A DNA stretch of 64,000 nucleotides, from assembly GCA_036517655.1 (NCBI GenBank), contig DATDVE010000023.1, forward strand, positions 1,358 to 65,357, written 5' to 3'. Positions 10,215 to 12,013 of the stretch are shown piece by piece (position 1 is the stretch's first letter; every line of letters begins with the position of its first letter). Source of the stretch: Minisyncoccota bacterium (GTDB lineage Bacteria; Patescibacteriota; Minisyncoccia; Phycocordibacterales; DATDSR01). The notes under the pieces are model-generated. The model did not search any database. It was given only the letters and a program-made list of their open reading frames with translations, and was not told the DNA's origin. The translations under genes and the position numbers were made by a program.

Positions 10215-12013
10215 ATTCCATACGAAATTTTTCTATTATCGCCCATATTGATCACGGCAAGTCTACTCTTGCCGACAGGATGCTTGAATTAACGGGCACT
10301 ATTGAAAAGCGCAAGATGCGCGAGCAAGTCCTTGATCGGATGGATCTTGAGCGTGAGCGTGGCATAACTATCAAAATGCAACCAGTGCGTATGGACTATG
10401 TCCTAGGTTCTATGTCCTATGTTCTAAACTTGATAGATACCCCGGGGCACATTGATTTTAGCTACGAGGTTTCGCGAGCGCTCACGGCCGTTGAAGGGGC
10501 AATTTTACTTGTTGACGCTTCGCAGGGTATACAAGCTCAAACACTTTCTGTGCTCGAACTCGCCCGTGCCCAGAACCTGAAAATTATTCCGGTAATAAAC
10601 AAGATAGATTTGCCACACGCAGATCCAGAGAGCGTGAAAGATGAAATTGTGAAGTTGCTTGATTGCGACAGAAGTGAGATCTTAGCTGTCTCTGGCAAAA
10701 CAGGTAAGGGCGTTCCGGAATTATTGAAGGCAGTTGTTGAGCGGATTCCTGCTCCCGAGTTACCTGGTAACCAACCTGGTTACCAGGTAACCAAATCCCT
10801 ACAGGCCTTAATTTTTGATTTTTCGTACGATACACATCGGGGGATTATTTTGTTTTTGCGTCTGTTTGGGGGACAGATAAATAGATTAGACAAACTTAAG
10901 TTTGCTTCATCAGGCAAGGAATTCGGGGCGATCGAGGTGGGAGTTTTCAAACCCGACGAGTTGATCACAAACAAATTAGAGTCTGGGGAAATCGGCTATG
11001 TTGTGACGGGGTTAAAAGAACCCGGTGTGGCCAGAATCGGCGACACTATCACGAGCCAGAAGTTACCCGCTCCTGCATTACCTGGGTACGGCAGGCCGGA
11101 TCCAGTCGTGTGGGCGAGTGTCTATCCCGAGGATCAAGGGGACTTTGTCACTTTGCGCCAGGCTCTTGAACGTCTCTCCCTTTCCGATTCGTCACTCTCA
11201 TTTGAAGAGGAGAGTTCGGGAACATTGGGTAGGGGATTTAGGTGTGGCTTCTTGGGAATGCTGCACATGGAGATAATTACAGAGCGACTTAAACGCGAAT
11301 TCAACCTATCGCTCATTGTTGCCTCTCCCACTATCACATATGAGATAGAGGATCTTAAGGGGTTGCGAAGTAAAGTTTATTCAGCAATCTACTTTCCTGA
11401 TGAGGGTGCGTACAAATCTGTCTACGAACCCTGGGTAAACATTAGGATCATTGCGCCCAGTCAGTACGCAGGCGCTCTCCAAGTTCTATTCCACGAGCAC
11501 GAAGTTATCCAGACTAATATCGAGAACTGGTCCGGGGAGCGTGTGAGTGTGGAGGGCGAGATGCCTCTGCGCGAACTTATGCGCGGCTTCTTCGATGAGC
11601 TCAAGAGTATCTCAAGCGGCTATGCCTCACTCTCGTACAAAATAGGAGATATGAGGGCAGCTGATATTGCGCGTTTAGACTTACTTGTGAATGATGAAAG
11701 GATTGCCGCTTTCTCGCGAGTTGTCTCGCGTCGCAGAATCGAAACAGAAGCTAACTCTGCCGCCGACAAACTCGAAGAGTCTATCCCCAAGCAAATGATC
11801 GAAGTCAAGATTCAAGCCAAAGCGCTCGGCAGAATTATAGCTGCCCGTCGCAAATCTGCCTTACGCAAAGATGTAACAGATTATCTATACGGCGGAGACA
11901 TAACGCGCAAAATGAAGTTGCGAGAAAAGCAAAAGAAAGGCAAGAAAAAGATGCAAGCCCGCGGATCTGTCTCAATTCCCCACGAGGTGTATTTGAAAAT
12001 GACGAAATCGTGA
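10211..12013 (+). CDS. lepA: translation elongation factor 4 (LepA)
   Basis: 600 aa; [23 protein letters not shown], G-domain motifs and LepA-specific C-terminus; contains an in-frame palindromic DNA insert at 10760-10795. Confidence 0.9.
   Translation: [600 protein letters not shown]

Follow-up and report, generated by a model that had tools for sequence, protein, structure and literature searches.

Why does the coding sequence of lepA contain a short palindrome, and why does the same palindrome recur, again in frame, in other genes of the same DNA? The question is raised by a stretch of 64,000 nt from a Minisyncoccota (Patescibacteria) genome (contig DATDVE010000023.1), referred to here as the window. 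The 19-mer TTGGTTACCWGGTAACCAA occurs exactly at 59951-59969 in miaA, with one mismatch at 10776-10794 in lepA and with three mismatches at 10756-10774 in lepA. These three matches compare with 0.00 expected, none having been found in 100 dinucleotide-preserving shuffles. Palindromes are abundant in the window as a whole. There are 23 perfect palindromes with arms of at least 9 bp, against about 1.6 in shuffles, and, with no more than one mismatch allowed, 27 palindromes of at least 10 paired bases, where block shuffles give 1-5. Most are found inside genes with good Pfam matches (lepA, leuS, tsaD, dinB, xseA, miaA and an amidase gene). A preliminary description of this DNA, whose sequences and coordinates are borne out by our analysis, had suggested that dispersed miniature palindromes are tolerated in frame in essential genes, and had named the site of a recombination system as one possible identity. 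We consider, with a probability of about 0.8, that the palindromes belong to a system of the kind formed by repetitive extragenic palindromic (REP) sequences and REP-associated tyrosine transposases (RAYTs). Each hairpin variant would be cognate to a RAYT-like HUH/Y1 transposase, whose gene has that variant on both sides and, in frame, once more within it. The suggestion of a recombination site thus came close, the element being most probably the cognate hairpin of a class of RAYT-like HUH tyrosine transposases encoded in the window itself.

The 19-mer forms the central part of a 21-nt hairpin, CTTGG-TTACCWGGTAA-CCAAG, and is one sequence variant of a Patescibacteria class of REP-type repeats. 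The class was surveyed in 80 metagenome loci encoding the transposase family, which contain 86 transposase gene copies (individual loci are cited by L numbers). Its formula is CTTRG-N11-CYAAG, or 5+11+5 nt, a length of seven codons, and the 19-mer fits this formula exactly. A search for CTTRG-N(n)-CYAAG that did not require pairing found n = 11 241 times, and each other value of n from 7 to 16 between 0 and 3 times; the reversed sequences of the 80 loci contained no class elements. The inner 4-nt arms were perfectly complementary in 187 of the 241 n = 11 elements (0.4% expected by chance), and 50 distinct cores were observed. Because only n = 11 is common and the arms are complementary, the unit is a rigid 21-nt hairpin whose feet are conserved and whose inner stem covaries freely. 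The hairpin is frequently extended to 23-25 nt, (C)ACTTGG...CCAAGT(G), and the flank consensus, with (C)CA directly before CTTGG...CCAAG and TG(g) directly after it, is symmetric on both sides. The stems are near-perfect, and the orientation of the loop differs between copies about as often as not. The outer arms had been described as resembling terminal inverted repeats; the whole element is instead one hairpin of fixed length. For the same reason a miniature inverted-repeat transposable element was considered and rejected: there are no terminal inverted repeats around a non-palindromic body, and the sole flanking direct repeat seen, AGG at a nested site described below, is ambiguous.

Two transposase genes of this family are encoded in the window, both on the minus strand and both specifying proteins of 215 amino acids that are ~50% identical to each other. 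Gene 2 (39208-39855) is followed by the hairpin CACTTAGCGCCCAGGGCGCTAAGTG at 39181-39205, 2 nt past its stop codon, which is terminator-like on the plus strand for the convergent open reading frame (ORF). The identical 25-mer stands upstream of the gene at 39869-39893, where, read on the minus strand, it is followed by TGTTATCAT, resembling an extended -10 box, and 6 nt later by the ATG. A third copy, CACCAACTTAGCGCCCAGGGCGCTGAGTTGGTG (39385-39417, on the minus, coding strand), differs from the 25-mer by one mismatch and is read in frame as H147-QLSAQGAELV. Gene 1 (34765-35412) has the same organization. Its downstream hairpin, AGAACTTAGGACCCGGAGTCCTAAGTTCT (34737-34765), overlaps the stop codon; its upstream hairpin, ACTTAGGACTCCGGGTCCTAAGT (35425-35447), is followed on the minus strand by TATAAT, with the ATG 6 nt further; and its internal copy is decayed (HQLNEESNKLV). 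The palindromes that bracket gene 1 have the consensus ACTTAGGAC(C/T)C(C/G)GG(A/G)GTCCTAAGT.

This arrangement recurs throughout the surveyed loci. Strict elements flank 49 of the 86 gene copies on both sides, and 39 of the 86 have one in each of the upstream, internal and downstream positions. Both copies share one core in 48 of 49 upstream/downstream pairs, 42 of 43 upstream/internal pairs and 40 of 40 downstream/internal pairs, as compared with 13.5% of unrelated pairs in an all-against-all comparison. The internal copy is always in phase, begins at the H147 codon and encodes H-Q-L-G-xxxx-K-L-V. The upstream copy is followed by TGnTAtaAT, with the ATG ~6 nt further. Judging from this flank consensus, the upstream hairpin would partly build the promoter and the message would be leaderless; the transposase promoters escaped a simple sigma-70 scan, and the assignment of the -10 box comes from the consensus.

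The protein is probably a distant member of the REP-associated tyrosine transposases. Pfam Y1_Tnp matched gene 2 with 26.9 bits, above the cut-off of 23, and gene 1 with 20.2 bits, below it. The best NCBIfam model was REP_Tyr_transpos, with a score of 29.5, below its cut-off of 80. An AlphaFold model built on 30 homologs had a pLDDT (predicted local distance difference test score) of 85, and a Foldseek search of the PDB with this model returned E. coli TnpA-REP on a REP hairpin (4ER8) as the top fold match (E 8.8e-6, TM 0.60 on the target), followed by the TnpA proteins of IS608 and ISDra2. The HUH residues H79/H81 together with Y139, N143 and H147, identified in gene 2, were invariant in 24 and in 30 homologs. 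The spacing of Y139/N143/H147 (Y/+4/+8) equals that of Y115/N119/H123 in E. coli TnpA-REP, where Y115 is the catalytic tyrosine and N119 and H123 are metal ligands (PMC3479197). The family comprises 1837 protein clusters at E<=1e-5; all members with a named source are from Patescibacteria, and IMG labels some of them RayT. A search of the solved structures with the single transposase sequence gave only nitrophorin noise, and a search with the family profile gave ISDra2 TnpA at E ~0.6. A weak but recurrent similarity of the profile to bovine RNase A (~80 residues, E down to 4e-5 for tandem constructs) was judged spurious, as the fold search gives only HUH transposases.

Copies of the hairpin are also found alone, away from transposase genes. 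In lepA (10211-12013) two adjacent TTACC-W-GGTAA copies, with T and then A at their centres, form a REPIN-like inverted doublet (REPIN, a REP doublet forming a hairpin) at 10756-10794. Together they make a perfect 33-nt palindrome (10759-10791), and they encode a 13-residue peptide in the linker between the G domain and domain II. The LepA of the window has 600 amino acids, against 593 in 83%-identical relatives with an empty site (the L107 ortholog being 7 residues shorter), so that the in-frame insertion described previously is demonstrable. The closest LepA match is 87% identical, and all the named matches are Patescibacteria (Paceibacterota/Parcubacteria), the group to which the window, a piece of chromosome from a groundwater genome, belongs. 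An identical LepA protein is encoded on 12 contigs that were read, some of them from other samples and one from JGI, which excludes assembly artefacts as the source of the palindromes. When the same LepA loop was compared in 7 relatives, 5 were found to carry long palindromes, each of them different, and one was empty. The palindromes include a perfect 31-nt one (L004), others of 41 nt (L106) and 25 nt (L105), a canonical one of the 21-nt class (L102) and a decayed one (L103). The LepA loop is a hot spot or else an old site with changing content. The RAYT protein P0163, which is from the same named genome as the LepA protein P0010, has a hairpin that differs from that of its lepA; transposases with matching hairpins are found in L041 and L068.

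The miaA copy, ACTTGGTTACCTGGTAACCAAAT (59949-59971), begins 2 nt past the xseB stop codon and is read as WLPGNQV in the non-conserved C-terminal tail of MiaA, as had been reported. It had, however, been placed inside the xseB/miaA overlap, which is incorrect: the overlap is 71 nt long (59879-59949), and the element lies outside it, in the miaA tail only. Homology to other MiaA proteins stops at about residue 279, precisely where the element starts. The miaA copy is effectively a post-stop REP of xseB that is read through by the miaA frame.

In the amidase gene the copy at 47518-47556, TTTGGTTACCAGG...TATCCAAA, has its centre split by a second palindrome, the 18-nt CCTGCCTGCGCAGGCAGG (47530-47547), and the whole encodes GYLPAQAGLVTK. 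Deletion of the inner 18 nt yields TTGGTTACCAGGTATCCAA, the outer 19-mer with one mismatch. Because this removal restores the outer 19-mer, the nesting noted in the preliminary description is real. The copy is located in a hypervariable inter-domain linker, and a 66%-identical ortholog keeps a diverged version of it. It was considered as a net insertion and rejected, there being no gain in length relative to orthologs. Among the lepA, miaA and amidase copies, only the one in lepA is a clear and demonstrable net insertion. The ortholog alignments therefore uphold the proposed insertion in lepA and not in the amidase gene, while the miaA element marks the end of homology; in-frame tolerance of the dispersed palindromes stands for all three.

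Further in-frame copies have cores identical to those of hairpins that bracket transposase genes. The solo class element ACTTAGCCGCCGGGCGGCTAAGT in xseA (59475-59497) has the core of the transposase-bracketing element in L022. In dinB the element TAAATTCGGCTACCGGGTAGCCGAATTTA (27174-27202) encodes FGYRVAE and has the 5+11+5 geometry with TTCGG/CCGAA feet; its core is that of the L070 bracketing element. An inverted doublet in the same gene, TGGAGGTGAGTCCTCCA-CT-TGGAGGTCTCACCTCCA (27323-27358), encodes LEVSPPLGGLTSK and has the core of the L049 bracketing element. Indeed, every intragenic 11-nt core of the window is matched exactly by a transposase-bracketing element elsewhere, the lepA and miaA cores matching that of L015. 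On the same contig, within the 9.6 kb that extend past the window and 34 kb from gene 2, dus contains a solo gene-2 hairpin in frame. It encodes LSAQGAK, which falls at a 6-residue gap relative to the solved homolog 1VHN. Across the 80 loci there are 25 strict elements away from transposase genes, about half of them in open frames of at least 100 codons.

The lepA and miaA variant was also found in association with a transposase gene in another genome. A scan for TTGGTTACCNGGTAACCAA, with one genome per species, returned 15 loci, of which 10 were singletons in unrelated taxa, at about chance level. The remaining 5 were exact copies in a single Patescibacterial metagenome-assembled genome, CAYGDD01, where the element reads ACTTGGTTACCAGGTAACCAAGT. 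Two copies are read in frame, one as LGYQVTK in TsaE and the other as WLPGNQV in an M17 aminopeptidase, and both peptides also occur in the window. A Y1_Tnp (IS200-like) gene of CAYGDD01 has three copies, one 13 nt ahead of its start, one within its reading frame and one 2 nt past its stop codon. A tblastn search with the protein encoded by this gene found both transposase genes of the window (54% and 50% identity). Two 19-mer copies in CAYGDD01 (L007:3304-3322 and 4001-4019) are each followed by GTGATAGCATAAAGATATG and stand directly upstream of an AAA_33 kinase gene and a hypothetical gene. Together with the -10-like box attached to it, the hairpin may have been co-opted there as a portable promoter.

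REP/RAYT systems, REPtrons and REPINs are well established (PMC3116915, PMC3479197). As in the systems of E. coli, Pseudomonas and Stenotrophomonas (4ER8; PMC3479197, PMC3116915, PMC3733652), an HUH/Y1 gene is bracketed by short GC-rich hairpins, and several diverged gene-hairpin pairs are possible per genome; solo copies of the same hairpin also occur elsewhere in the contigs examined. Inverted doublets (here in lepA, dinB and L027), a conserved stem foot and many copies just past stop codons are shared features as well. By analogy, the transposase would bind the hairpin in single-stranded DNA and would cut and rejoin beside it, like E. coli TnpA-REP in vitro, and would thereby copy or replace hairpins. 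A seven-codon unit with two stop-free frames on either strand would leave a protein functional when inserted in a permissive loop, linker or tail, so that such copies would persist. Arm-to-arm templated repair would then keep the copies perfectly palindromic while their sequence drifts.

Several points weigh against this interpretation. The canonical REP 5' tag (GTAG/GTGG or CGTC) is absent, the feet being symmetric (CACTTGG/CCAAGTG), and the palindromes are nearly perfect, unlike the imperfect REPs of E. coli. The counts of dispersed copies are drawn from contigs, the 80 loci and one metagenome-assembled genome, and mobilisation of the hairpins by the transposase is postulated solely by analogy. 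No transposase gene cognate to the TTACC-W-GGTAA variant was found in the 77-kb contig. Since this gene is not there, and since the feet of the 3 or 4 window copies of the variant are slightly decayed (CCTGG/CCAAA, TTTGG/CCAAA), these copies may be older or orphan ones. Finally, some coding palindromes fall outside the 21-nt class, namely those in tsaD, leuS and the LepA loops of L105 and L106, and their existence implies that a more general process generating or maintaining palindromes is also at work. The tsaD pair, CCCGTGGCTGACTGTCAGCCACGGG and its partner (22705-22743), is not of the 21-nt class and constitutes a 6-residue insertion relative to two relatives. The TsaD of L107 (17258-18385) has short insertions of its own (DSKVKPWN, ARLPDGQ and LNVNGKS) at positions that differ from those in the window.

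A more specific version of the REP/RAYT reading is tentative, and we regard it as doubtful. Every transposase ORF of the Patescibacterial clade would hold a protected master copy of its own hairpin, starting from the codon of the metal-ligand His in the catalytic helix; the conserved feet CACCAACTTGG/CCAAGTTGGTG would specify H-Q-L-G and K-L-V, and the 4-codon core would be free to vary. Hairpin replacement by the transposase would keep the internal, flanking and dispersed copies, including those at long-lived intragenic sites such as the LepA loop, in concert. With a mobile unit of exactly seven codons, this would be a transposable element adapted to life inside the genes of gene-dense, streamlined genomes.

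The transposase gene with its two hairpins might alternatively be an autonomous insertion sequence of the IS200/IS605 type, the solo hairpins being leftover ends. This is unlikely. The Y1 HUH fold is common to the IS608 and ISDra2 TnpA proteins, with which the Patescibacterial enzyme would also share recognition of hairpins in single-stranded DNA; a hairpin stands at either end of a unit of ~720 bp; and the orthologous gyrA-methyltransferase interval of a relative (L104:1864-1945) is without the small ORF and the hairpin-transposase-hairpin unit (window 38978-39947). However, no near-identical full-length copies of gene plus hairpins were seen in the contigs, the two window genes are only ~50% identical, and where a locus has two genes (six cases) their hairpins differ. 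Nothing of a transposase gene remains beside the solo elements, which are clean 21-nt in-frame units. In structural and in profile comparisons alike, the enzyme resembles RAYT more than IS200 TnpA, and the 215-residue length with a C-terminal extension is RAYT-like. The pattern typical of IS200/IS605 elements, with movement of the whole unit, asymmetric left and right ends and identical copies, is not seen here.

Alternatively, intramolecular template switching (quasipalindrome correction or arm-to-arm conversion) could have created the palindromes in place and made them perfect, with no mobile element. As an account of origin this is very improbable, although traces of such a process are evident. 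The lepA orthologs show paired changes (TGG/CCA against CGG/CCG), as do the outer arms in amidase orthologs (TTTGG/CCAAA against TTCGG/CCGAA). The leuS hairpin CCAGATTCGTT-CTCCAT-AACGAATCTGG (20145-20172) differs in the L004 ortholog by three compensated base pairs, so that a perfect 9-bp stem is kept even though two of the changes replace an amino acid (N/H and S/A); the hairpin is absent in a third relative. This pattern suggests arm-to-arm conversion or selection on the hairpin. Palindromy also reaches into unique flanks, for example in the L004 lepA, whose 15-bp arms extend to a conserved Leu codon, and long arms are present downstream of several transposase genes. The paired differences between orthologous palindromes suggest that arm-to-arm templated repair or selection for the hairpin has acted after insertion. 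Template switching nevertheless does not account for 19-25-mers that are identical between unlinked loci and between genomes, for the constant 21-nt length and conserved feet, or for the bracketing of transposase genes, and is best seen as a maintenance process on copies after their arrival.

The least credible explanation, part of which had been offered earlier, is that the palindromes are recognition or regulatory sites, either restriction-modification targets or operators of a dimeric DNA-binding protein: the core contains GGTNACC and CCWGG, the hairpin upstream of the transposase overlaps the promoter-like TGnTAtaAT, and the two L007 copies lie just upstream of unrelated genes and are followed by the same conserved sequence, but CCWGG occurs in the window at its expected frequency (100 against 106), the excess of GGTNACC (15 against 8) stems from the element copies (6 of the 15 being inside the element itself), a fixed recognition site is at odds with 50 different cores and covarying stems, and most copies are within coding sequence.

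The system we favour, a RAYT-like transposase with its cognate hairpins, differs from the known REP/RAYT systems in several respects. The Patescibacterial elements lack the GTAG/GTGG or CGTC tag, have a rigid length of 21 nt and are nearly perfect palindromes. The E. coli K-12 rayT gene has REPs on both sides and no palindrome inside, whereas the Patescibacterial transposase ORF holds a co-varying in-frame copy. The upstream copy is directly followed by a promoter-like -10 box, a large share of the copies are intragenic, and the hosts are Patescibacteria. The repeats are accordingly not exclusively extragenic, many copies being in frame in genes. Intragenic, in-frame REP singles and dimers have been described in replication, repair and tRNA-related genes of Opitutus terrae, Thauera, Xanthomonas and others (Di Nocera et al. 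2013, PMC3733652), and different REPs were found at approximately the same recB site in two Xanthomonas species (PMC3733652). Those REPs, of the GTAG and CGTC superfamilies, occur in large genomes and only a small fraction of their copies is intragenic, whereas the Patescibacterial unit is found in a streamlined genome and measures exactly seven codons. REP/RAYT systems and intragenic REPs as such are therefore already known. What looks new is the Patescibacterial clade, the rigid seven-codon unit, the co-varying copy inside the transposase gene and the repeated colonisation of one LepA loop. A search of the accessible literature found no paper linking RAYT or REPIN to Patescibacteria.

The elements also resemble the Rickettsia palindromic elements in being palindromic repeats of a reduced genome that are inserted in frame into essential genes and translated as extra peptides. 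Their sequences are unrelated. The Rickettsia elements are ~100-150 bp long and are not known to have a dedicated transposase.

Patescibacteria genomes are very small and gene-dense, with little intergenic space, and a transposase family of ~1800 clusters appears to propagate a seven-codon hairpin in them. In-frame hairpin repeats are present in the essential genes lepA, topA, dinB, xseA, tsaD, dus and miaA. If the REP/RAYT reading is correct, it would account for many unusual peptide insertions that are lineage-specific in proteins of these bacteria (LGxxxxK and WLPGNQV, for example), and would provide a sequence signature for their automatic detection. It would also offer a tractable system, with a 215-residue enzyme, a 21-nt substrate and 50 natural variants, for studying how REPs get copied. 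The co-varying copy inside the transposase gene, which the E. coli archetype is without, could show how an enzyme and its repeat stay matched.

The inner palindrome of the amidase gene belongs to a separate dispersed repeat family, distinct from the 21-nt class. CCTGCCTGCGCAGGCAGG is found exactly at 47530-47547 and 63967-63984 (0.03 expected). The second of these copies lies within GCCTGCCTGCGCAGGCAGGC (63966-63985) in topA. It is read in frame (GLPAQAGG); its position is just upstream of the last zinc ribbons, and not inside the zinc-ribbon region as first stated. A one-base variant, CCTGCCTGCGGCAGGCAGG (36256-36274), supplies the last codons (LPAAGR*) of the ORF at 35801-36277. This variant had been missed in the preliminary description, which also drew no link from the palindromes it reported to the two transposase genes (34.7-35.4 kb and 39.2-39.9 kb) or to the many other palindromes of the window. 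A fourth copy is located in dus (L110:2807-2826), where it encodes SLPAQAGLG at a 12-residue gap relative to 1VHN. The GCCTGCCTGCGCAGGCAGGC family thus consists of units of 18-20 nt, with four copies in 77 kb, that encode LPAQAG in the amidase, TopA and Dus and LPAAGR* at one C terminus. A one-mismatch copy in the sugar kinase gene of L032 encodes LPAKAG. Neither an enzyme nor a bracketing arrangement was found for the CCTGCCTGCGCAGGCAGG family.

Other hairpins of the window are of different kinds. A perfect 24-nt palindrome, TATGGTGTACGATCGTACACCATA (25585-25608), lies between divergent genes (25095-25571, minus strand; 25619-26209, plus strand); it is operator-like and unrelated to the 21-nt class. 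Two longer hairpins, GCAGCCGGGGACCCAAGAGGGTACCCGGCTGC and GCGGCCAGGGACCCAAGCGGGTACCTGGCCGC (25513-25544 and L110:7744-7775), have a common loop region (GGGACCCAAG.GGGTACC) and different stems. The hairpin at a third site, ACGCCGGGTGGACGCAAGTCCACCCGGCTT (53938-53967), is similar in length and is without this loop motif. The three may form a third family. The tRNA-Lys/Leu/Cys cluster at 48429-48839 has perfect palindromes at 48689-48708 and 48734-48755, in the Leu-Cys spacer, and is overlapped by a spurious long ORF (48554-49105). Finally, a hairpin with a 12-bp stem, ACAGTCGCCGAGCCGCAAGCTCGGCGACTTT (4554-4584), begins 10 nt inside an ORF with no Pfam match (4544-5707), the true start codon of which may be downstream of the hairpin.

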